Assembly (NCBI GenBank): GCA_050125095.1 | Contig: JASFEA010000044.1 | Coordinates: 1 to 20,502, forward strand | DNA: 20,502 nucleotides | Source: a bacterium | GTDB taxonomy: Bacteria > Arandabacterota > Arandabacteria > Arandabacterales > JALGWA01 | Reading direction: 5' to 3' | Shown: in pieces, positions 4,707-20,502 of the stretch | How positions within the stretch are numbered: position 1 is the first letter of the stretch | Layout of the letters: every line of letters starts with the position of its first letter | Translations under genes and position numbers: made by a program | Notes under the pieces: generated by a model | The model's input: only the letters and a program-made list of their open reading frames with translations | Database searches by the model: none | What the model was told of the DNA's origin: nothing

Positions 4707-6704
4707 CCTTTCGTAGTGCTTGTTGCACATCCTCAAGGGCTCGGTCCCGCTCACGAAAACCTCCGCATGGGGACTGGGGCAGTTCGCCGTGGCCAGGAGC
4801 CCCGTCTCTTCACATACTTCCCGCACCACTATGCCATGCGGCGTCGGAAACGGCCTGTCCGGATAGGCCTCGAGTGCGGTCTTCATGAAGTTGACCCAAA
4901 TCGGCAGCGCCACGCGCGCGCCCTCCTGGCCCTCGCCCATTGTCTGCTTGGCGTCGAAGCCAACCCATACGCCGGCTACTATGTCGGGCGAATAGCCCAC
5001 AAACCAGGCGTCGGTGTATTCGTCCGTGGTGCCGGTCTTGCCGGCCACGGTGTTGGTAAGCCCCCTCCATTTGACCGAAGCCCCGGTCCCATAGTCGACC
5101 ACGCTCTCGAGCATGTCGGTGACGACATAAGCCGTCTGGGCGTTCAGCACCTCGGTCTTCACGGGGTTGTTCCGCTCGAGCACCTCGCCGTCGCGCGTCT
5201 CTATCCTTATGATGGTCATGGGCTCGGCCCTTATGCCTGAGGCCGCGAGCACCCCGATGGCGGAGGTGAGTTCGAGGAGGGTGACCTCGAAGGAGCCCAG
5301 CGCGATCGACCGGTAGGGGCGCAGGCGGCTCGATATGCCCATGCGCTGGGAGTAGTCCACCACCGTCTGCTGGCCGAGGCGGTCGGCGAGCTTAATCGCC
5401 GGAATATTGATGGACTTGGCCAGGGCGTAGCGCAGCGAGACCGGCCCGAAGTACTTGTCCTTGTAGTTCTTGGGCCGCCACTGGCTGCCGTCTGGCATAT
5501 CCACCACCATGGGATCGTCCATAATTATGTCAGCCGGCGTGTAGCCGTTGTCTATGGCCGCCGTGTAGACGAATACCTTGAAAGCCGAACCCGGTTGGCG
5601 TAGTGACTGGGTGGCCCGGTTCCAGTTGCTCTCGATGTAGTCGCGTCCCCCCACCATCGCGAGCACGTAGCCGGTGGATGGGTCGATGGCAATGAGCGCA
5701 CCCTGTATGTAATCGGTCTGGACGGCATCATCGGGGGTGGCCTCGATGCCCATGGTGTCGCGAACGACGTAGTCGAATGCGCCTTCCAGGCGGCGCAGGT
5801 GATCTTCCACGGCCTTTTCGGCGGCTATCTGCATGTCGAGGTTCAGGGTGGTGTAGACGCGGAGGCCCTCCCGGTATATCGCGCTGGCGCCGTAGTCATG
5901 CTCGAGCTTGCGCCGGACGTGCTCGGCGAAATAGGCGCCCGGCTCGGCCTTCTCGCGTTCGACGAGGACTATGGTGTCGGCCTTTGCCTCGGCGGCCTCG
6001 GCAGCGGTTATCATGCCCATCTCGTTCATGGACCGGAGGACTATGGCCTGGCGCTTCTTGGCGACGTCGAAGTGTCTCCGCGGAGAGTAGGCGTAGGGAT
6101 TGCGGGGGAGCCCCGCGAGCAGCGCCGACTCGGCCAGGGTGAGGTCGCTCGCCGGCTTGCCGAACAGGTGCCGCGCGGCGGCCTCCACACCGTAGGCGCC
6201 GTCGCCGAAGTATATCTGGTTGAGATACATCTGAAGAATCTCATCCTTGGTGTAATGGCGTTCGATCCTGACGGCGACTATGGCTTCCTTGATCTTGCGC
6301 GTAAGCGTCTGTTCCTGGGTGAGGAAGAGATTCCGGGCGAGCTGCTGCGTGATGGTGCTCGCCCCGCGGACGATACGCCTGGCCACTATATCCTCGTAAA
6401 GCGCCTTTCCTATGGCCAGCATATTGAGGCCCCAGTGCTGGTAGAACCTCCTGTCCTCGACTGCGATGAAAGCGTTTATGACATGCTGGGGGACCTCATC
6501 CAGGGAGACTATGACGCGGTCCTGCTCGTAGAAAGACTTTATGGGCTTGCCGTTTATGTCGTAAAGCACCGTGCGGATCCAGGGCTTAACGTCCATGAGA
6601 TCGTCGGTGGAGGGGAGGTCGCGCGAGAAGTAGGAATACAGGACGATGCCCCCGACCACCACGAAACAGGCTGCGATCGCAACGGCAACCGTTTTCCTTC
6701 TCAA
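4644..6704 (-). CDS. Class A penicillin-binding protein (PBP1A family, transglycosylase plus transpeptidase)
   Basis: N-terminal TM anchor; GT51 motifs EDRRFYQHWG, GASTITQQL, RKIKE, KDEILQMYLN; transpeptidase motifs SAFK, SIN, KTG; TTG start with SD AAGGAGG. Confidence 0.95.
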   Translation of the reverse strand: MRRKTVAVAIAACFVVVGGIVLYSYFSRDLPSTDDLMDVKPWIRTVLYDINGKPIKSFYEQDRVIVSLDEVPQHVINAFIAVEDRRFYQHWGLNMLAIGKALYEDIVARRIVRGASTITQQLARNLFLTQEQTLTRKIKEAIVAVRIERHYTKDEILQMYLNQIYFGDGAYGVEAAARHLFGKPASDLTLAESALLAGLPRNPYAYSPRRHFDVAKKRQAIVLRSMNEMGMITAAEAAEAKADTIVLVEREKAEPGAYFAEHVRRKLEHDYGASAIYREGLRVYTTLNLDMQIAAEKAVEDHLRRLEGAFDYVVRDTMGIEATPDDAVQTDYIQGALIAIDPSTGYVLAMVGGRDYIESNWNRATQSLRQPGSAFKVFVYTAAIDNGYTPADIIMDDPMVVDMPDGSQWRPKNYKDKYFGPVSLRYALAKSINIPAIKLADRLGQQTVVDYSQRMGISSRLRPYRSIALGSFEVTLLELTSAIGVLAASGIRAEPMTIIRIETRDGEVLERNNPVKTEVLNAQTAYVVTDMLESVVDYGTGASVKWRGLTNTVAGKTGTTDEYTDAWFVGYSPDIVAGVWVGFDAKQTMGEGQEGARVALPIWVNFMKTALEAYPDRPFPTPHGIVVREVCEETGLLATANCPSPHAEVFVSGTEPLRMCNKHYERSVFDQADLLDSTSVHTPEYH

Positions 6705-7308: not shown

Positions 7309-8565
7309 TTGAGTTCAGACATCGCGAAGGAAGTTGAGCATCAGCTCGACATCATAAGGCGGGGCACCACTGAGATAATCTCCGAAGAAGAGCTCGCCGC
7401 CAAGATCAAGAAGTCTTTAGAGACGGGAAAGCCCCTGAGAGTCAAGCAGGGCTTCGACCCCACCGCGCCCGACATTCACCTGGGCCATGCGGTGGGAATA
7501 CGCAAGCTCCGCGACTTCCAGAACCTGGGCCACACGGTGGTCCTCATAATCGGCGACTACACGGCCCTCATAGGAGACCCCAGCGGCAGGAGCAAGACCC
7601 GCCCGCGCCTCTCCGAAGAAGAGGTTAAGCAAAACGCCAGGACTTACCTCGAGCAGTTCTCACGCATCGTGGATGCGGAGAAGTCCGAGATCCGCCATAA
7701 CGGCGAGTGGTTCAGTAAGATGACTTTCCTCGACTGCCTCAACCTCACGGGGCTCACCACGGTGGCCCGCATCTTAGAGCGCGACGACTTCGAGAAGCGC
7801 TTCAAGGACCAGGCGCCCATCGGCCTTCACGAGCTCATGTATCCCATCATGCAGGCCTACGACTCGGTCGCCATCGAGGCCGACGTCGAGCTCGGCGGCA
7901 CCGAGCAGAAGTTCAATCTGCTCCTCGGACGGCAGATGCAGCAGAGCCGCGGCCAGGAGCCGCAGGTCGCCGTCACGGTGGCCATCTTAGAGGGCATATC
8001 GGGCAAAGACCGCATGTCCAAGTCGCTGGGGAATTACATCGGCATAACCGACGAGCCGGTGGACATGTACGGCAAGGTCATGTCCATACCGGACGACCTC
8101 ATTCTTCACTATTTCGAGCTCGCCACCGAGATAGACGGGGCCGGTCTCGGCGAAGTCGAGAAAGCTCTCAAGGCGGGGGTGGAGAACCCGAAGAACATTA
8201 AGGCCCGCCTGGCCAGCGAGATCGTGCGCATTTATCACGGCCAGAGCGCCGCCGAGACTGCCGCGCTCGAGTTTGAAAAACGCTTCGGCAAACTCAGGGG
8301 CACGACCGACCTCGATCAGGTCGAGGAAGTCACGCTCGAGGTTGCCGGGGACAAGATATGGATCGTGAACCTCCTCCGGGAGACCGGCCTGGCCAGGAGC
8401 GGGGGGGAAGCCCGCCGCAAGATAAAAGCGGGCGCGGTGAGGATAGACCAGGAGAAGGTCACGGACGTGGATTTGGAGGTTCCCGTGGGGGCCGGAGAGC
8501 CCCTGCTTCTGAGCCTCGGCAGGGAATTTAAGAAAATTCTGTTAAAAAAGGCAAATAGGCCTTGA
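7309..8565 (+). CDS. tyrS: Tyrosine--tRNA ligase with C-terminal S4 domain
   Basis: GFDPTAPDIHLGH (HIGH), IGDPSG, YPIMQAYD, GGTEQKFN, RMSKS (KMSKS), S4-like SGGEARRKIKAGAVRID. Start reassigned to TTG 7309 behind the SD and promoter. Confidence 0.95.
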   Translation: MSSDIAKEVEHQLDIIRRGTTEIISEEELAAKIKKSLETGKPLRVKQGFDPTAPDIHLGHAVGIRKLRDFQNLGHTVVLIIGDYTALIGDPSGRSKTRPRLSEEEVKQNARTYLEQFSRIVDAEKSEIRHNGEWFSKMTFLDCLNLTGLTTVARILERDDFEKRFKDQAPIGLHELMYPIMQAYDSVAIEADVELGGTEQKFNLLLGRQMQQSRGQEPQVAVTVAILEGISGKDRMSKSLGNYIGITDEPVDMYGKVMSIPDDLILHYFELATEIDGAGLGEVEKALKAGVENPKNIKARLASEIVRIYHGQSAAETAALEFEKRFGKLRGTTDLDQVEEVTLEVAGDKIWIVNLLRETGLARSGGEARRKIKAGAVRIDQEKVTDVDLEVPVGAGEPLLLSLGREFKKILLKKANRP

Positions 8566-8807: not shown

Positions 8808-10392
<1,585 letters not shown>

Positions 10393-10486: not shown

Positions 10487-10563
<77 letters not shown>

Positions 10564-10613: not shown

Positions 10614-10689
10614 GGGGATATAGCTCAATTGGGAGAGCGCCGGCTTTGCAAGCCGGAGGTTACCGGTTCGATCCCGGTTATCTCCACCA
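10614..10689 (+). tRNA. tRNA-Ala (TGC)
   Basis: Acceptor stem GGGGATA/TATCTCC with G3:U70, anticodon loop TTTGCAA, encoded CCA; 76 nt. Confidence 0.98.
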
Positions 10690-10820: not shown

Positions 10821-13891
<3,071 letters not shown>

Positions 13892-14055
13892 TTGCAATCA
13901 TTGCAGTGTTACTATTTGATGCTTGTGATCTTTATCCCCTTTTTGCAGTTGTCATGATAAATAGCCTGGTGTGGGGTGGGGATGATACTCAGTTCTTGCG
14001 GATTCGGTCTGTGTTCTGAGCGCCCGAACTCGTACCAGGCGACTAAATAGCCGGA

Positions 14056-14094
14056 GGGGTCTGGCTACCGAGCGTAGCGAGCGTGCCTGACCCC
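14056..14094. repeat. REP-like imperfect palindrome in the 23S-5S spacer
   Basis: GGGGTCTGGC...GCCTGACCCC, with the same GGGGTC/GACCCC termini as the 6796-7250 repeats. Confidence 0.65.
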
Positions 14095-14107
14095 AAGGCA
14101 TCAGAAG

Positions 14108-14224
14108 TTCCGGTGGTAATGGCGGAGGGGCCACACCCGTTCCCATTTCGAACACGAAGGTTAAGCCCTCCAGCGCCGATGGTACTGCATGGGAGACTGT
14201 GTGGGAGAGTAGGACGCCACCGGG
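14108..14224 (+). rRNA. rrf: 5S ribosomal RNA (intact)
   Basis: Helix I TCCGGTGG/CCACCGGG, CCCATTTCGAAC loop C region, GCCGATGGTACT, GGGAGAGTAGG; followed by T6. Confidence 0.98.
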
Positions 14225-14305
14225 CTTTTTTATGCCCATCCTGGCGGCCCCCTGTTTGGGCCATGTGTGCAGGAATACCCCGCCCCTGGTGTCAATATAA
14301 AGAGC

Positions 14306-14358
14306 TTGACACGACTGACAGTCATTGCATAGTATGTCCACGAAACGTGGACATACTA
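14306..14358 (+). promoter_or_regulatory. Promoter and palindromic operator of the abiE operon
   Basis: TTGACA (14306-14311), 18 bp spacer, TAGTAT; perfect inverted repeat TAGTATGTCCACG-AAA-CGTGGACATACTA (14330-14358) covering the -10 and start site. Confidence 0.7.
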
Positions 14359-14381
14359 GCTTCTAAATAGACGGGGTGTAA

Positions 14382-15035
14382 ATGGACGAAGCCACACGCA
14401 TACGACGGGAAATGGCAGGGGAGATCTTCGACTACCAGGCCCTGACCTCAGCTCTGTCTGACTACAGCAAGCCCCGTGACAAGATCACGAGGTTGCTTGC
14501 GAGCGGTGCCATCGTCCGGATCAAGAAGGGTCTGTACTGCTTCGGGGAGAGCTTGCGCAAGGGGCCGCTCAGCCGTGAGCAGATTGCCAATCTTATATAT
14601 GGCCCGTCCTATGTCAGCCTTGACTATGCTCTCAGCTATCATGGCATGATTCCCGAGCGGGTCGAGGTGGTTACGTCTGTGACGACGCGCCGCTCCCGCA
14701 CCTTCACGACACCCGTTGGATCCTTCTCTTACCGCACGCTCCAGGAAGCCAGGTATTCGACGGGCGCAATCCTGGAATCCGGGGGCAACACCGCATTTCT
14801 GGTCGCGACTCCGGAGAAGGCGCTCATAGACAGGGTATGGACGGACAGGCGGTTCAGCGGCGGGCGCGTGGCCGATTTCGAGGCGTATCTGCTGGACGAT
14901 CTCAGGATCGATGAGGAAGCGCTCAGCCGGCTCGACGAGTCCCGCCTTCAGTCCATCGCGTTTGCCTACGGTTCGGCCAAGGTCAACAGACTTGTGCGCT
15001 ACCTCAGGGGCCGGGAGGGGGCTTCTCATGCATGA
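14382..15035 (+). CDS. Type IV TA antitoxin, AbiEi-like transcriptional regulator
   Basis: Winged-helix IVRIKKGLY, then PSYVSLDYALSYHGMIPE, TSVT and ATPEKALID; overlaps the toxin start (ATGCATGA). Confidence 0.88.
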   Translation: MDEATRIRREMAGEIFDYQALTSALSDYSKPRDKITRLLASGAIVRIKKGLYCFGESLRKGPLSREQIANLIYGPSYVSLDYALSYHGMIPERVEVVTSVTTRRSRTFTTPVGSFSYRTLQEARYSTGAILESGGNTAFLVATPEKALIDRVWTDRRFSGGRVADFEAYLLDDLRIDEEALSRLDESRLQSIAFAYGSAKVNRLVRYLRGREGASHA

Positions 15036-15894
15036 GGCTATACGCAATATGCTGGACCGCTACGAGTGCCGTACGCGGGATGACTACACCAACGCGCTCA
15101 GGGAGATCCTTCAGGATGTCGCCCTGCTCGGCCTCTGGCGCAGCAAGTTCTTCGAGCACGCGGCCTTCTATGGCGGCACCGCCCTCAGGCTCCTCCATGG
15201 ATCGGAAAGGTACTCCGAAGATATCGACTTCTCGCTTCTTCAGGCTGACGACTCATTCTCCCTGGGGACCTATGGAGATGCCCTGCTTCGGGAGATAAGC
15301 AGCTTCGGTTTCGACGTTGATTTCGAGGCTCGAAAGAGTGAGCGAACCGGGGCCATTGAGTCAGCCTTCCTGAAGGCCAGCACATACAGACAACTGGTCG
15401 TAATCGGTGTTACAGAAGAACTGCTGCATGATCTCCATCCTGCTAAGAACCTCAAGATCAAGATCGAAGTCGATACCGATCCGCCAGGCGGCTTCCAAAC
15501 GGAGACGCGATATGTTCTGCAGCCTGTTCCCTTTTCAGTCCGCACATATACGCTGCCCGATCTCTTCGCAGGCAAGCTCCATGCAGTCCTGTGTCGCAGG
15601 TGGAAGACCCGGGTGAAGGGCCGGGACTGGTATGACATGGTCTGGTATGCCGCCAACCATCCGGAGGTCCGTCTTGCGCATCTTGAGGCCAGAATGAGGC
15701 AATCAGGCGACTACACGGATGACGGGCCGCTTGATGCCGAGACCATGAGGGCGATGCTGCACACGGCCCTGGAGGACCTGGATGTCGATGAGGCCCGCCG
15801 TGAGGTTGCACCCTTTATCAGAGATCAGAGAGCTCTGGATCTGTGGTCCATTGAGTTCTTCGCGGAGATTATCGGGCGCATCGATACGATATGA
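15028..15894 (+). CDS. Type IV TA toxin, AbiEii/DUF1814 nucleotidyltransferase
   Basis: FYGGTAL, RYSEDIDF, KIEVD, AGKLHA, RDWYD; start reassigned to ATG 15028, coupled to the antitoxin stop; 288 aa. Confidence 0.9.
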   Translation: MHEAIRNMLDRYECRTRDDYTNALREILQDVALLGLWRSKFFEHAAFYGGTALRLLHGSERYSEDIDFSLLQADDSFSLGTYGDALLREISSFGFDVDFEARKSERTGAIESAFLKASTYRQLVVIGVTEELLHDLHPAKNLKIKIEVDTDPPGGFQTETRYVLQPVPFSVRTYTLPDLFAGKLHAVLCRRWKTRVKGRDWYDMVWYAANHPEVRLAHLEARMRQSGDYTDDGPLDAETMRAMLHTALEDLDVDEARREVAPFIRDQRALDLWSIEFFAEIIGRIDTI

Positions 15895-15902
15895 ACGGGC
15901 TC

Positions 15903-15988
15903 GATGTTTGTTCGCTTTATCCCCTTTTTGCAGTTGTCTAACGAAATAGCCTGGTGTGGGGTGGATGTTACTCAGTTCTTGCGGATTC
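15903..15988 (+). repeat. Diverged copy of the proximal 23S-5S spacer (13918-14005)
   Basis: CTTTATCCCCTTTTTGCAGTTGTC is identical at 13930-13953 and 15915-15938; AAATAGCCTGGTGTGGGGTGG and TACTCAGTTCTTGCGGATTC are also shared. Confidence 0.92.
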
Positions 15989-16071
15989 CGAACACGCAGG
16001 TTAAGCCCTCCAGCGCCGATGGTACTGCATGGTGGACTGTATGGGAGAGTAGGACGCCACCGGGCTTTTTT
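15989..16071 (+). pseudogene. 5'-truncated 5S rRNA copy 2
   Basis: 15989-16065 matches 14149-14225 with 4 mismatches in 77 nt, then T6. Confidence 0.93.
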
Positions 16072-16082
16072 CATGGCTTCGC

Positions 16083-16850
16083 CTACGGCGGGTCCAATGG
16101 CTCCAGGAAGAGCATAAAGGAATCAATCCCTGTCGGGCCGAACACGATCGGTGTGATTAGGGAATCTGGTTTGTGTCCTTCCATCTCAAGTCGGACAACG
16201 TGGTTATTCCACCACTCCGCAATATGCAGGGTTGCGCTTGTGGTCTTGCCCGTATGCTTTCCGTCGAATACTACCGCTGCACCGCTAGGTCTCGAGAGGA
16301 TACGAGTAACATAGACTGGACGGCCTCCGTACGCGTGAATCCTTCCCGCGAAGCGACTCAGCTTGATGTGACATGAATCGCTTCCGAGTGTAGGGAAGTC
16401 AATCGTAAGTAGGCCCTTGGAGAGTGAGTCCCCGGTCGGGGCTATCCAGGCTGCTCTTTCCTCCACTTCCCAGTGCTGGCAATGTCCAGTGGAGTCATGA
16501 CAGATGGCACTTCTTTTCCGTAGCGGAGCGATGTAACCAATCGTCGAGCCCCAGTGGACATCCTCCGGTATGCCGTTGGCGGTCAGGAACCTGAAGACCA
16601 TCTCAGTGGTGTCAAGCAAAGCCGGCTCCAGGTAGTCGAAGTGGGTGATTCTGACTACGTAGGGTATATTTTGGGCCTCACACGGGTGCGGATCGACGCA
16701 GCCATCGTCTGTACACGATACCAGTAACGCAACGAGGCCATGCACGAGAAACAGAGCGATCAGGAACCTAGGGGTCGTCGAGTCCCCTCTGCGTCTTCTT
16801 CCACCAGTTGCAGCTGAATCATTCGACCTCAAGGTCATTGAAGTCTCCAT
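16083..16850 (-). CDS. Hypothetical lipoprotein with C-terminal PEGA-like domain (start uncertain: 16871, 16850 or 16838)
   Basis: Basic N-region, hydrophobic stretch and lipobox LVSC; C-terminal SRPSGAAVVFDGKHTGKTT...VVRLEMEGH resembles PEGA; ORF fills the space between two repeats. Confidence 0.65.
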   Translation of the reverse strand: METSMTLRSNDSAATGGRRRRGDSTTPRFLIALFLVHGLVALLVSCTDDGCVDPHPCEAQNIPYVVRITHFDYLEPALLDTTEMVFRFLTANGIPEDVHWGSTIGYIAPLRKRSAICHDSTGHCQHWEVEERAAWIAPTGDSLSKGLLTIDFPTLGSDSCHIKLSRFAGRIHAYGGRPVYVTRILSRPSGAAVVFDGKHTGKTTSATLHIAEWWNNHVVRLEMEGHKPDSLITPIVFGPTGIDSFMLFLEPLDPP

Positions 16851-16902
16851 TCTCGACAGCCGCGATCCCACTCAGATCATGAGTATACATGTTCCCGCTT
16901 TG

Positions 16903-16934
16903 GTGGGAGAGTAGGACGCCACCGGGCTTTTTTT
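16903..16934 (+). pseudogene. 5'-truncated 5S rRNA copy 3 (3' end only)
   Basis: GTGGGAGAGTAGGACGCCACCGGGC is identical to 14201-14225, then T7. Confidence 0.9.
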
Positions 16935-16948
16935 GTGCTCTCGAAATA

Positions 16949-16983
16949 AACGTCTTGACGTTATGACGTTATAATGCTATCAT
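16949..16983 (+). promoter_or_regulatory. Promoter/operator of the RHH-RelE operon, probably leaderless
   Basis: TTGACG (16955-16960), 17 bp spacer, TGcTATCAT (-10 at 16978-16983); palindrome AACGTC-TT-GACGTT and tandem TGACGTTA repeats; ATG follows 6 nt after the -10. Confidence 0.65.
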
Positions 16984-16989
16984 ATCGCC

Positions 16990-17223
16990 ATGAATGACCA
17001 GAACAAAAGAGCCACAGTCTACTTCGACCCTGATCTCCACATGGCTCTGCGCCTCAAGGCCGCTGAAACGGACAAGTCAATTTCCGAGTTGGTGAACGAA
17101 GCGGTCAGAAACGCCCTGGCGGAGGACGCCGAGGACCTTGAAGCGTTTGCCGATCGGGTCAAGGAGCCGACGCTTCCTTTCGAGGATCTCGTGAAGGACC
17201 TTAAGCGCCGTGGCAAGATATAG
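16990..17223 (+). CDS. Ribbon-helix-helix (CopG-like) antitoxin
   Basis: KRATVYF strand plus two helices (LHMALRLKAA, SISELVNEAVR), acidic C-terminal half; directly upstream of and overlapping a RelE gene. Confidence 0.85.
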   Translation: MNDQNKRATVYFDPDLHMALRLKAAETDKSISELVNEAVRNALAEDAEDLEAFADRVKEPTLPFEDLVKDLKRRGKI

Positions 17224-17473
17224 GATCGTCATCAAGGCGTCGGCTGCTAGAGAGATCGAGGAGATCAGTTCCCGCGGGGACCGACGACGCGTAGTAGACC
17301 GGATAGCGGCCCTCGCCGAAGATCCCCGTCCCCGGGGATGTGAGAAGCTCTCTGGCCGGGACATATACCGGATACGCCAAGGCCCCTACCGCATTCTCTA
17401 TTCGCTCCAGGATGAGCAGCTTGTAGTACACGTGGTCAAAGTCGGCCACCGACGGGATGTCTACAAGGGCTGA
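17210..17473 (+). CDS. Type II TA toxin, RelE/ParE family
   Basis: YRIVIKASA, DPRPRGCEKLSG, YRIRQGPYRILY, VVKVGHRRDVY; basic, 87 aa. Confidence 0.92.
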   Translation: MARYRIVIKASAAREIEEISSRGDRRRVVDRIAALAEDPRPRGCEKLSGRDIYRIRQGPYRILYSLQDEQLVVHVVKVGHRRDVYKG

Positions 17474-17521
17474 CGCTGTTGAGTGGGGCAAGACCTGGCC
17501 AGGCTCGTCCGCTTGTCTGCG

Positions 17522-17590
17522 GCACCGATGGTACTCAATGGGAGACCGTGTGGGAGAGTAGGACGCCACCGGGCTTTTTTTATGCCCATC
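17522..17590 (+). pseudogene. 5'-truncated 5S rRNA copy 4 plus native downstream flank
   Basis: 17522-17574 matches 14173-14225 with 4 mismatches in 53 nt, then the T-run and ATGCCCATC as after the intact gene. Confidence 0.92.
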
Positions 17591-17774: not shown

Positions 17775-20502
17775 ATGGAGCAGCGCGAGTCTTTCGAGAC
17801 CATACTCACTACCAGACTTCACCCCCCTCCCATATCCTCCGATATCGTGGCCAGGCCGCGGCTTCTGAAGACGCTCATGGAGGGGCGCCGAAGGACGATG
17901 ACGCTCATATCGGCTCCTGCCGGGTACGGAAAGAGCGTGCTGGCGAGCCAGTGGCTGGCCGGGGAGAAATGCCCCGGCGCCTGGGTTTCCCTGGATGAGG
18001 ATGACGGCGATCCGCGTACGTTCCTCGCTTACGTTCTGGCGGCCATCCAGAATACATTCCCGGAGGCGGAGCTGAAGACCCAGCCCCTGCTCCAGGCTGC
18101 CGAGATGCCTCCTCCCAAGGTTCTTGCCCGCCACCTGCTGAACGACATGGAGCGGATCGGCGAAGAGTTCATTCTGGTACTGGATGACTACCATCACATC
18201 ACCGAGTCATCGATACACGATCTCATTGTCGAGATGTTGCGCCACCCGTCGCCTAATATGCACCTGGCTGTGCTCACCCGGCGCGACCCGCCTTTCCCGA
18301 TACATGCCTTGCGGGCCGGGGGCGAGATGACCGAGATCGGCGTCCAGCAGCTCCGCTTCACGCCGGCCGAGACACGGGAGTTTCTGGATAGGCTGGTCCG
18401 TATTGATATCGATGAGGATACGGCGGCTCTTCTCGAGGAGAGATTGGAGGGCTGGGCGTCGGGGTTGAGACTGGTAGCCATCACCATGGCGGAGACGGGT
18501 GAATATGACCGCATGATCGAGGTTATCAGGGATGGGTCACACTATTTACAGGAGTACCTGTTGCGGGAAGTGCTTTCCCATGTGTCACGCCCTATTTCCG
18601 ATTACCTCCGGTATACCTCGCTGCTTGACCGTTTCTGCGCGCCTCTCTGCGAGGCGGTACGGCCGACTCGTGAAGATCCGGGGGGGGACCCGGCTGCACT
18701 GAGCGGGCATGACTTCATCGAATGGCTGGAGCGGACCCATCTCTTCGTCATCCCTTTAGACTCCCGACACGAGTGGTTCCGCTATCACCATCTCTTTCAG
18801 CAGCTTCTCAAGAGGGAACTTGAGAAGGCATCGGAGCCCGGCGAGATTGAGGCTGCCCACTTGCGGGCGGGTGCCTGGTTTGCCGAAAACGGCCGCATAG
18901 AGGAAGGCATACGACATTTGCTGGCCGGGGGAGATGTCGACGCCGCGGCCGGGCTGGTTGAGAAGAACCGGATTGCAGTGATCAACACTGACAGCTGGCA
19001 GGTCTTCAGAAAATGGCTTTCGCTGTTTCCCGAGGAGGAAATCCAGAGGCGCATTGGGCTTCTTCTTGCCCGGCTCTGGTTGCACACGGAGTTGTATGAG
19101 GTTCAAGAGCTCCTGGGACTGCTTCGCTCTATTGAGCCGCTGACTTGTGATCTGCCTCCGGGGGATCCCTTGAGAGCTGAGGTTGACCATTTCCGGGGCT
19201 ATGTTGCCTATATCCTCAACGACGGTGCCGAGAGCCTCAAGCACCTAGAGGACGCGCGGCGAGCAATGCCCGATACGCATCACGAGATTAAGGGCCAGAC
19301 CGAAATGCTCTGGGGAATGGCGAGCCAGATGCAGGGGGAAAAAGACAAGGCGGTCGGTGAGCTTAGAGACATAATCCTGAAGGAGAACCCGCATCCGATA
19401 AGAGTCACGCGCCTGCTCGCCGGGCTCTCCTTTATGCACACCATCGCCGGCGAACTGGAGGAAGCAGCTGAGGTGAGTCGGGAGTTCGAGGAAATCTCAG
19501 CAAAGCACGGTTACGATTTTGCCAGGGCGTGGGCGGTGTACATGCGGGGCTGCACAAGCTTTTATCGAAACGAGCTTGGCTTTGCCATAGGCCACCTGAA
19601 CGAGTCGAGTGAACTCAGGCACATCTCGCATAACCGCGCTGCAGTTGACGGCATGGCCGGACTGGTTCTGGCCTATGAAGCCGCGGGCCATCCCGATAGA
19701 GCCGACCGTGCCCTCCGCGACCTCTCCGAGCATTCCGATGGCCTCCGGGATTCATCCTATTCAGTGATCGCCGCCTCCTGCGGCGCAAGGCTCTCCATCA
19801 TGCGCGGAGAGACCGAGGCCGCTCTGAGCTGTCTGCAGGGAGGGGCTCCTCCAGTTGAGAACATGGTATTCTGGATGGAGGTTCCCTGTCTCACCTACTG
19901 CCGCGCTCTTCTTTCCGAGGGCTCTGACTCGAGCCTGAAAGAAGCGGAGAAGAGGCTGGAGGAGTGTCTTAAACTCAACCAGGACAGTCACAACGTCTGC
20001 AATTCCATATGTGTCATGACGCTGCTCGCGATGGCGTATGACGGACTGGACCGGCTGGACGACGCGCTCGCCATGCTTGAGCGCGCAGTGATCGCGGCTG
20101 ACCCCGGGGGGATCGTCCGCCCGTTTGCCGAAATCGGCCCTCCCGTGATTGAGCTATTGAATATACTCATCGAGCAGGGTAAGTCCGTCGAGCCCGTCGA
20201 ACGCCTGCTTGCCTCGCTTGATAGGCCTCAGCCCGCGGTGCCGGAAGAGATTGCACACGCCGCCGTCCGCCGGTCGGGCACTGAGCAGAGCTCGGGATCG
20301 AAGCGGCAGGCCCCTCACGGCGAGCCGGTTCCCGAGCTGACCCGCCGAGAGCTTGAGATACTCAATCTCCTGGGGGAGGGACTCAGAAACCAGGAAATCG
20401 CGGACCGTCTGTTCATATCCACTGAGACCGTGAAGAGTCATGTCTACAATCTCTTCCAGAAGCTCGAGGTCAAGGGCCGGGTGCGCGCCGTCAAGCGGGC
20501 AA
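17775..20502 (+). CDS. MalT-like STAND ATPase with C-terminal LuxR HTH (3' end beyond window; missing from the ORF track because no stop is reached)
   Basis: MEQRESFETILTTRLHPP..., Walker A APAGYGKS, WVSLD, Walker B LVLDDYH, EGWASGL, FRYHHLF; LTRRELEILNLLGEGLRNQEIADRLFISTETVKSH is in the same frame. Confidence 0.92.
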   Translation, partial: MEQRESFETILTTRLHPPPISSDIVARPRLLKTLMEGRRRTMTLISAPAGYGKSVLASQWLAGEKCPGAWVSLDEDDGDPRTFLAYVLAAIQNTFPEAELKTQPLLQAAEMPPPKVLARHLLNDMERIGEEFILVLDDYHHITESSIHDLIVEMLRHPSPNMHLAVLTRRDPPFPIHALRAGGEMTEIGVQQLRFTPAETREFLDRLVRIDIDEDTAALLEERLEGWASGLRLVAITMAETGEYDRMIEVIRDGSHYLQEYLLREVLSHVSRPISDYLRYTSLLDRFCAPLCEAVRPTREDPGGDPAALSGHDFIEWLERTHLFVIPLDSRHEWFRYHHLFQQLLKRELEKASEPGEIEAAHLRAGAWFAENGRIEEGIRHLLAGGDVDAAAGLVEKNRIAVINTDSWQVFRKWLSLFPEEEIQRRIGLLLARLWLHTELYEVQELLGLLRSIEPLTCDLPPGDPLRAEVDHFRGYVAYILNDGAESLKHLEDARRAMPDTHHEIKGQTEMLWGMASQMQGEKDKAVGELRDIILKENPHPIRVTRLLAGLSFMHTIAGELEEAAEVSREFEEISAKHGYDFARAWAVYMRGCTSFYRNELGFAIGHLNESSELRHISHNRAAVDGMAGLVLAYEAAGHPDRADRALRDLSEHSDGLRDSSYSVIAASCGARLSIMRGETEAALSCLQGGAPPVENMVFWMEVPCLTYCRALLSEGSDSSLKEAEKRLEECLKLNQDSHNVCNSICVMTLLAMAYDGLDRLDDALAMLERAVIAADPGGIVRPFAEIGPPVIELLNILIEQGKSVEPVERLLASLDRPQPAVPEEIAHAAVRRSGTEQSSGSKRQAPHGEPVPELTRRELEILNLLGEGLRNQEIADRLFISTETVKSHVYNLFQKLEVKGRVRAVKRA

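Follow-up and report, generated by a model that had tools for sequence, protein, structure and literature searches.

An array of gene modules between leftovers of the rRNA operon tail in an Arandabacterota genome, and a possible route of its growth by homology

How do unrelated gene modules come to be stacked behind an rRNA operon, each of them followed by a copy of the 3′ end of the 5S rRNA gene, in a region with no recombinase gene of its own? The question is raised by contig JASFEA010000044.1 of assembly GCA_050125095.1, from a bacterium of the phylum Arandabacterota. The contig (C44) is 20,502 nt long and was analysed in its entirety; we refer to it as the window. It belongs to a metagenome bin of 268 contigs (genome G000) with a single rRNA operon (rrn), as blastn searches of the genome with the 16S and 23S rRNA genes returned this copy only. 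An earlier note, made from the letters of the window, had described the region behind the operon as an integrase-less array of gene cassettes delimited by repeated 5S ends. We read it as an accretion array behind the single rRNA operon, composed of one working 5S gene, three leftovers of the operon tail and, between them, three apparently acquired modules. We observe the repeats, the make-up of the relics, the recurrence of the arrangement in relatives, array contigs free of recombinase genes and a slot that differs between close relatives. The feature is real and more general than the window, and with moderate confidence we regard it as a hotspot at the rrn tail that would have been built and renewed by homology.

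The repeat is a 30-mer comprised of the last 24 nt of the 5S gene and a run of six T (T6). It occurs four times on the forward strand without a single mismatch, at 14202, 16042, 16904 and 17551, with copy-to-copy spacings of 1840, 862 and 647 bp, exactly as the earlier note had reported; matches were found in 0 of 100 dinucleotide-preserving shuffles. Only the first copy is a complete 5S gene, as had also been noted: it alone reaches the Rfam 5S cut-off, while copy 2, which cmscan aligns end to end, scores 30.8 bits and copy 4 scores 21 bits. In local alignments, copy 2 keeps 5S positions 37–117 (81 nt, previously given as about 77), copy 3 positions 93–117 (25 nt) and copy 4 positions 65–117 (53 nt), the last two lengths being those of the earlier count. 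The exact repeat between copies 3 and 4 is 32 nt long, and 9 nt past the T-run are common to copies 1 and 4. A repeat search found no inverted-repeat pairs marking the ends of the units; the repeats are direct copies of the 5S tail. The coordinates of all features are listed in Table 1.

Table 1. The rRNA operon, the array units and the repeat copies in the window
Feature	Position	Strand	Content and support
16S rRNA	8808–10386	+	Rfam gathering match
Two tRNAs, between 16S and 23S	10487–10560, 10614–10686	+	Rfam gathering match
23S rRNA	10821–13892	+	Rfam gathering match
23S–5S spacer	13893–14108	+	Part 13918–14005 repeated before copy 2
Functional 5S (14109–14225) and T6 terminator run; repeat copy 1	14109–14231	+	RF00001, 96.8 bits, full length
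Unit A	14232–15902	+	AbiEi 14382–15035, AbiEii 15028–15894
Relic 2 (copy 2)	15903–16071	+	86 nt of spacer, 142-nt deletion, 5S 37–117 with 5 differences, T6; cmscan E 0.0014
Unit B	16072–16902	−	PEGA-domain lipoprotein gene 16083–16871; Pfam PEGA E 7.1e-6
Relic 3 (copy 3)	16903–16934	+	5S 93–117 and T7, 0 differences from the functional 5S
Unit C	16935–17521	+	RHH antitoxin 16990–17223, ParE-family toxin 17210–17473
Relic 4 (copy 4)	17522–17590	+	5S 65–117 with 4 differences, all upstream of the last 24 nt; T7; 9 nt more
MalT/LuxR-type regulator, resident gene right of the array, runs off the contig	17775–20502	+	Pfam TPR_MalT, GerE; collinear in contig L022

The copies contain more than the 5S end. 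The piece of spacer in copy 2 is homologous to 13918–14005 (85–89% identical; 87.6% over 89 nt in blastn), and the internal deletion of this copy sits at a 4-nt microhomology, TTCG. Judged by their sequence, the copies are leftovers of whole rrn operon tails of varying length, with later internal losses, rather than simple attachment-site (att) repeats, since spacer or 23S pieces and deletions are found both in copy 2 and in the relics of a second locus of the same genome (contig C60, see below). The variable 5′ truncation of the copies that the earlier note wished to explain therefore stands only in part: their left ends do vary, but the relics are rrn tails with internal deletions and not pure 5′ truncations. 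Retroposition of the 3′ ends of pre-rRNA was considered and rejected, as the copies cluster behind the operon, share bases past the T-run and have internal deletions. Modules of the Xer/dif type were rejected as well, the 5S core being, by eye, without the two-arm symmetry of dif-like sites.

Some further traits of the spacer and the relics were seen. In copy 2, the spacer part replaces the 5′ third of the 5S in register, giving a 5S-like unit of 116 nt, for which cmscan support is weak. The spacer itself faintly resembles a decayed 5S at 13964–14042, with ends like those of helix I that could pair (cmscan support again weak, in low-probability columns). A 5S-like reading of the 5′ end of copy 4 was dropped, as it rests on low-probability cmscan columns. 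At 14042–14103, metagenome contigs L023 and L025 and sequencing runs X2 and X4 have a different and shorter spacer segment (24–28 nt instead of about 60 nt), while the version of the window is also present in one of the C60 relics (relic B); hence, two spacer variants circulate.

Each unit between the copies holds one module, and Pfam bears out the content proposed earlier, namely AbiEi/AbiEii, a lipoprotein (PEGA) on the opposite strand and an RHH antitoxin with a toxin of the ParE/RelE superfamily (ParDE). AbiEi matches AbiEi_4 (E 1.9e-5), with the NCBIfam model TAA_AbiEi below its cut-off, and AbiEii matches its Pfam namesake (E 9.4e-35). In unit C, Antitox_RHH (E 1.1e-6) and ParE_toxin (E 4.5e-12) were found, with the match to the RelE_StbE model below the cut-off. 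Units A and C have the same orientation as the operon, unit B the opposite one. A promoter scan predicted promoter-like sites in unit A (14306–14335) and unit C (16955–16983), both scoring 10/12. Overlapping the −10 of the AbiE site is a perfect 13-bp inverted repeat with a 3-nt spacer (14330–14358), which, by analogy with described AbiE systems, would be a likely operator of AbiEi autoregulation. The stop codons lie 8, 11 and 48 nt from the repeat, as counted in the earlier note, when copy 2 is taken to begin at 15903; the gene of unit B starts about 30 nt from relic 3.

The cargo looks acquired, since its GC content is low (0.548–0.579, unit B being at 0.548, compared to 0.602 for the genome and 0.556 for the 5th percentile of 800-nt windows), no paralogues of it were found within the genome, and the AbiEii and ParE homologues in other genera are located in unrelated contexts. 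None of nine such AbiEii/ParE loci had 5S pieces within about 1.5 kb on each side. At the DNA level, unit A (14299–15836) is homologous to the AbiE module of another genome, G008. For the PEGA lipoprotein, no homologue was found in the 17 other genomes of the phylum (E ≤ 1e-6).

The arrangement is not confined to the window. On contig C60 of the same genome, relic A lies behind a BamA-like gene and consists of the final 55 nt of 23S, some 50 nt of spacer and, past a deletion, 5S positions 32–117. After it come a gene for a zeta-toxin-like kinase (Pfam Zeta_toxin, E 8.1e-11), then 76 nt of spacer with a whole but mutated 5S (74.7 bits; relic B), and fragments of an IS91-family transposase. In the congener G002 (contig C206), a 5S and a 5S relic (41–117) enclose an opposite-strand Fic gene, and the relic is followed by an intact IS91-family transposase gene (Y2_Tnp and Zn_Tnp_IS91). 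In G009, a member of another family (contig C25), the 5S is followed by two small opposite-strand genes and a fused relic, in which 80 nt from inside the 23S are joined to about 50 nt of the 5S tail; next come a gene for a PRiA4_ORF3 protein and a whole 5S split by about 105 inserted nt. The relics of G009 differ in 5S allele from its leading 5S, with matching changes in both strands of helix I. In G013 (contig C178), the last 93 nt of its own 5S and 12 nt of terminator are repeated 2.5 kb downstream, with 102 of 103 nt identical, and an opposite-strand GH13 amylase gene lies between the two copies. In each lineage, the array is built on that lineage's own 5S sequence.

To count such loci, we took as the pattern a strong 5S match and, on the same strand of the same contig, a weaker one a few kb further downstream. 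In an Rfam 5S scan, it was present in 4 of the 18 genomes of the phylum (two loci in G000, and G002, G009 and G013; three genera, two families), the related genomes among the 18 not being independent, and in 0 of 133 outgroup genomes; the scan is blind to relics under about 50 nt. An apparent pair in outgroup G077 was rejected, as it belongs to an operon of the form 16S-5S-tRNA-23S-5S, and in outgroup G142 a weak 5S match lies 10 kb upstream of the strong one. Lone relics, or relics truncated at the other end, were found in G001 (C51), G004 (C7) and G002 (C30). Across the loci, the left ends of the relics range from inside the 23S to 5S position 93, a scatter of more than 500 nt of rrn sequence.

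Recombinases were searched for in the same places. In the window, neither the seven large open reading frames (ORFs) left of the operon nor any cargo ORF matched a recombinase or transposase family, in agreement with the earlier note. No integrase was found in the window or in the examined stretches of C60, G002 C206, G009 C25 and G013 C178, where for G009 and G013 the cargo ORFs were tested; the three genes with PF00589 in the genome of the window are all on other contigs (C66, C38 and C224). The 5S core had no match in viral contigs, and none in a collection of genome contigs which may leave out the genome of the window itself.

These loci have peculiarities of their own. On C60 (4899–12944 of the stretch L007), the IS91-family transposase gene is split, with the N-terminal half at 4917–5510 and the C-terminal half at 12348–12941; an extra C-terminal piece is located at 9803–10015, and the ca. 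6.8 kb between the halves include a gene for a repeat-rich secreted protein of 1143 aa. Directly past the end of the IS91 element, there is a short piece that resembles, with 88% identity over 49 nt, the 3′ portion of the PEGA lipoprotein gene of the window. In G009, the best-scoring 5S (385–543 of the stretch L020 of C25, 81.5 bits) is 159 nt long owing to an internal partial duplication of about 40 nt. The last 90 nt of G002 C30 show the opposite kind of relic, a mutated 5S truncated at its 3′ end (about 88 nt) and fused to unrelated DNA with a gene for a secreted protein of 1011 aa. Finally, G009 (L020 546–1438) and G013 (L061 1026–1945) share a conserved overlapping pair of small genes (about 185 and 115 aa) near the rrn tail; they had no Pfam or NCBIfam match and might represent a toxin-antitoxin-like pair not described before.

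The last 24 nt of the 5S are kept better than the remainder of the relics. In the window, the relics have no differences from the functional 5S in 72 positions of this core but 9 in 87 positions upstream of it (Fisher p 0.004). For the seven relics with a reference 5S from the same genome, the numbers are 2/168 and 21/363, respectively (p 0.019). Hence, the 5S tail seems to have been used repeatedly, in five loci of four genomes, with its terminal 24 nt better preserved.

Comparison with close relatives shows that the content behind the 5S is not invariant, which the earlier note had proposed to examine. A metagenome contig, L022, matches the window at 95% identity over copy 3, ParDE, copy 4 and the regulator. 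To the left of copy 3, it has a gene of 455 aa and a short ORF instead of the gene of the middle slot, and its relic at the place of copy 3 is longer (50 nt) and degenerate. The short ORF (8290–8400, reverse strand) has a signal-peptide-like start and extends directly into the relic, which gives it the look of a gene severed at the joint; a search for full-length homologues, which would prove such a truncation, returned none. In L021, a ParDE unit 78% identical to that of the window is found with its right-hand relic (5S 60–117, two differences) in a different context, with no 5S left of ParDE, and the homology to the window starts 13 nt after the place of the T-run. In L024, a 5S is followed by an AbiEi gene 80% identical to ours and interrupted by an IS3-type element. 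Contigs of a relative from run X4 (about 91–94% identical) show AbiE behind the 5S, the joint of the AbiEii end with the copy 2 spacer piece, and ParDE, copy 4 and the regulator in succession. In the sequences compared, then, the outer junctions are common to the relatives and it is the middle slot that differs. Unless units are passed from one lineage to another, this goes against the prediction of the earlier note that the newest cassette is the one beside the intact 5S: compared with the 95% relative, the difference is in the middle slot, and the junction between AbiE and copy 2 is shared with the X4 relative, at about 93%.

What process could have produced such a region? We consider it about an even chance that the units were inserted and exchanged by recombination anchored on rrn homology, rather than in an integron-like way. 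From the data above, we infer as follows how the recombination proceeded, where the DNA came from, in which order the events took place and why the core is conserved. Incoming DNA of a related lineage would bring an rrn tail together with its own downstream genes. On the left side, the incoming tail would pair with the resident 23S or 5S; on the right side, the joint would be either an illegitimate one within the resident rrn tail or one made through a short stretch of homology to a 5S relic. The donor 5S would become the working gene, and the resident tail would be pushed rightwards as a relic, to decay by point changes and deletions. The 5S and the relics bracketing a unit would then provide homology on both sides, and units could be swapped between lineages with no integrase. 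The last 24 nt and the T-run would be kept because the 3′ part ends in, or must rebuild, a working 5S at the next exchange; alternatively, the 3′ end may serve as a processing or terminator signal, as proposed for the tRNA-linked repeats of Escherichia coli.

Several observations fit this route. The pattern recurs with the 5S of each lineage, no integrase was found at the loci examined, the middle slot varies between close relatives, and the cargo, by its GC content, its lack of paralogues and the contexts of its homologues, looks acquired. The leading 5S and the relics of G009 differ in allele, as would be expected if the donor 5S arrives with the insert. The left ends of the relics scatter and include spacer and 23S sequence, so that anchoring on homology fits better than an att site. 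A one-off scar would not be enough, because the last 24 nt are better kept than the rest. The earlier note had viewed the 5S 3′ end as a reusable capture site, either for a recombinase acting in trans or for homology-facilitated illegitimate recombination. Repeated use in five loci speaks for such a site and the second option fits better, while the first is weakened by the scattered left ends.

Other observations weigh against anchoring on rrn homology. No donor, empty site or circular form was seen in the contigs assembled at k=31, which break at the repeat. The left ends of the cargo all lie about 3–15 nt after the T-run, and 10 of 13 flanks open with the same three bases; this could reflect a precise target site, or a limit set by selection on the terminator. 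In two units, no more than 8 and 11 nt separate the stop codon from the unit end, a neater fit than random illegitimate joining would give. In L021, the ParDE unit is accompanied by its right-hand relic with no 5S at its left. The tight flanks, the gene-hugging ends and the ParDE-relic pair would also suit a precise enzyme, and the IS91-type element discussed below is a candidate helper. The bias toward the last 24 nt might reflect uneven variability of the 5S itself, and the relics are not independent. Finally, ComEC and DprA are present, but as they are also present in 10–11 of 14 control genomes, they are uninformative on competence.

A broader version of the homology-anchored route, which we put forward tentatively and hold to be less probable than the route itself, is that the rRNA tail acts as a recombinase-free cassette system in the phylum. 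A module with its relic would be excised, passed on and re-inserted at any 5S tail by homologous recombination, the 5S end would play the part of attI and attC, and the 24 nt would stay constant to rebuild a working 5S. In a bolder variant, an unrecognised enzyme, possibly a transposase of the IS91 type, would act on the 5S core.

Among the alternatives, site-specific recombination keeps the most ground, although we think it unlikely. Here the last 24 nt of the 5S and the T-run would be the att core of a tyrosine or serine recombinase encoded elsewhere, and the units would be integrase-less elements with att flanks. The core is perfect in all four copies and better kept than the remaining parts of the relics. 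The copies all repeat, in one direction, the end of a stable RNA gene, the cargo starts a few nt past the T-run in nearly all of them, and the ParDE unit moves with its right-hand relic. However, an att core accounts poorly for relics with spacer and 23S pieces and scattered left ends, and other genera show the same pattern with different 5S tails. Moreover, the searches described above gave neither an integrase on the examined stretches of the five array contigs, the PF00589 genes of the genome being elsewhere, nor the core in any viral contig.

Less likely again is a home-grown origin, in which the rrn tail was tandemly duplicated, the copies were kept as processing or terminator signals, and the genes were inserted later by unrelated events. 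The part kept is indeed the very 3′ end with the terminator, units A and C face in the direction of the operon, and the predicted fold of copy 2 closes a 5S-like helix directly before the T-run. There is also a parallel in E. coli, where repeat units likewise finish with a copy of the upstream tRNA or 5S 3′ end, and where read-through transcribes the three behind 5S genes together with the operon (PMC8144298). But the fold energies of the relics are within the range of shuffles (z −0.8 to +0.6), and a scan for consensus terminators called no relic. The units have only the rrn tail in common and so are not duplicates of one unit; they are 647–1840 bp long, with protein genes that have promoter-like sites of their own, unit B is reversed, and the content of a slot differs among close relatives.

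The third alternative, to which we give less weight than to either of the former, involves a rolling-circle transposon of the IS91/ISCR type. Located behind the 5S, it would overrun its end and carry the 5S tail and neighbouring genes as circles or single strands, to be rescued by recombination with a 5S. Overrun of an ISCR-type transposon is the origin of the duplicated common regions in complex class 1 integrons. The transposase gene with Y2_Tnp and Zn_Tnp_IS91 begins about 150 nt after the T-run of a 5S, at the same junction, in G002 C206, G000 C60 and metagenome contig L025, and in C60 the right end of the element is followed by CAAG. The C60 array is located away from any rrn operon, beside the BamA-like gene, and keeps no more than 55 nt of 23S, which would be in line with the transport of an rrn tail array. 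Yet there is no IS91 sequence in the window, unlike at C60 and C206, and hence no counterpart here of the transposase behind the ISCR duplications; the genome of the window has the transposase only as fragments, in G013 copies of the element have no adjoining 5S, and no such gene was found among the ORFs tested in the G009 and G013 arrays. The same junction in three places may as easily be one old insertion spread by homology. Outside the genus, 0 of 9 loci with IS91-like copies had a 5S beside them, and the 5S is therefore not part of the element.

It remains to be asked whether the array could have arisen in the assembly, by joining separate rrn flanks or strain variants at the shared 30–32 nt. 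Logan contigs of two runs cover every unit with 99–100% identity, and one of them starts within copy 2, crosses its 30-mer and unit B and reaches into copy 3. These contigs, assembled at k=31, end at copies 3 and 4, which share 32 nt, and so confirm the junctions and not the order. The order is independently backed by L022, with copy 3, ParDE, copy 4 and the regulator in the same succession, and by L024 and an X4 contig, where the 5S is followed by AbiE, while another X4 contig has the joint between the end of AbiEii and the copy 2 spacer. A candidate X4 joint between 14188 and 16902 was discarded as uninformative, as its short side falls inside the repeat, and unit B has no cover at 90% likeness in the X4 contigs, which is not evidence of its absence. 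From the contig comparisons a misjoin appears unlikely, because each adjacency is independently supported by the Logan contigs, L022, L024 or X4. Thus, although the genome is a bin of 268 contigs and the breaks of the k=31 contigs imply a graph branched at copies 3 and 4, the exact repeat is shorter than a read, and with the spanning contig and the independent orders just given an artefact is very improbable.

The operon is intact, with the 5S gene 216 nt from the 23S and the array placed behind the 5S. To its left are housekeeping genes for a phosphopentomutase-type enzyme, cytidine deaminase, RpiB, DeoC, pyrimidine nucleoside phosphorylase, PBP1 and TyrRS.

Of the known systems, integrons are similar in that they line up small units, for the most part single operons, with many toxin-antitoxin modules among them and a repeat behind each unit. 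The likeness of the cargo to that of integrons, suggested in the earlier note, goes no further than analogy: here there is no IntI, attI or attC-type hairpin site or common promoter, the toxin-antitoxin modules have promoter-like sites of their own, and the repeats are rRNA fragments. The tandem islands at tRNA and tmRNA genes and the cis-mobilizable elements have direct att repeats, several in a row, and some lack an integrase; they depend on a tyrosine integrase and a defined core. Like them, our array has several elements in a row and a directly repeated 3′ end of a stable RNA, but no adjacent integrase, which would have made it one conventional island, was found on the contig, and the repeat is not confined to a defined core.

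Closer parallels come from stable RNA operons. The tRNA-linked repeats (TLRs) of E. coli comprise 22 units at ten loci, 1–5 per locus, each ending in 18–19 bp of the 3′ end of the upstream tRNA or rRNA; three of them (rrA, rrB and rrF) are located behind the 5S of rrnA, rrnB and rrnD and give rise to small RNAs by read-through (Stenum et al., 2021; PMC8144298). TLRs resemble our units in lying downstream of a stable RNA gene and ending in an exact copy of its 3′ end (here 24 nt and the T-run). But TLRs are about 100–180 bp long and encode non-coding small RNAs, while the units of the window are 647–1840 bp, about ten times longer, contain unrelated protein modules, one of them reversed, and have relics with spacer and 23S pieces and a content that turns over among relatives. 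In SAR11, the variable region HVR2, of about 48 kb, is located between 23S and 5S and includes an integrase gene, and the rRNA genes have been proposed as sites of homologous recombination that spread its variants (2007; PMC2217521). Variable genes are bracketed by rRNA sequence in both cases, the slot left of copy 3 being the one that differs from L022 here; however, HVR2 splits the operon and has two working flanking genes, whereas in the window the operon is intact and small units are stacked between the 5S and decayed relics.

As for the mechanism, homology-facilitated illegitimate recombination has been described for competent species transformed in the laboratory (de Vries and Wackernagel, 2002; Prudhomme et al., 2002; cited in PMC8504540 and PMC3646047). 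Its one-sided anchor and low-homology joint would explain variable right-hand joints near an anchor. In the window, the rrn anchor is present, and the one microhomology seen is the 4 nt at the internal deletion of copy 2. In the literature searched, we found no description of the natural repeated use of one anchor to build an array, and no paper on cargo bracketed by repeats of the 5S 3′ end, supplements being outside the search.

Gene-gain hotspots with no mobile-element genes are common in bacteria and poorly explained, and the array provides a concrete and testable case that leaves a readable trail of relics. The tail of the rRNA operon, the most conserved sequence of the cell, appears here as portable homology for the entry and exchange of defence and toxin-antitoxin modules without an integrase. 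One idea would join the tRNA-linked repeats of E. coli and the rRNA-flanked island of SAR11 to the arrays described here, namely that units behind stable RNA operons keep the 3′ end of the RNA. For practical purposes, additional pieces of 5S downstream of rrn operons may offer an inexpensive way to spot hotspots of this kind in metagenome bins.

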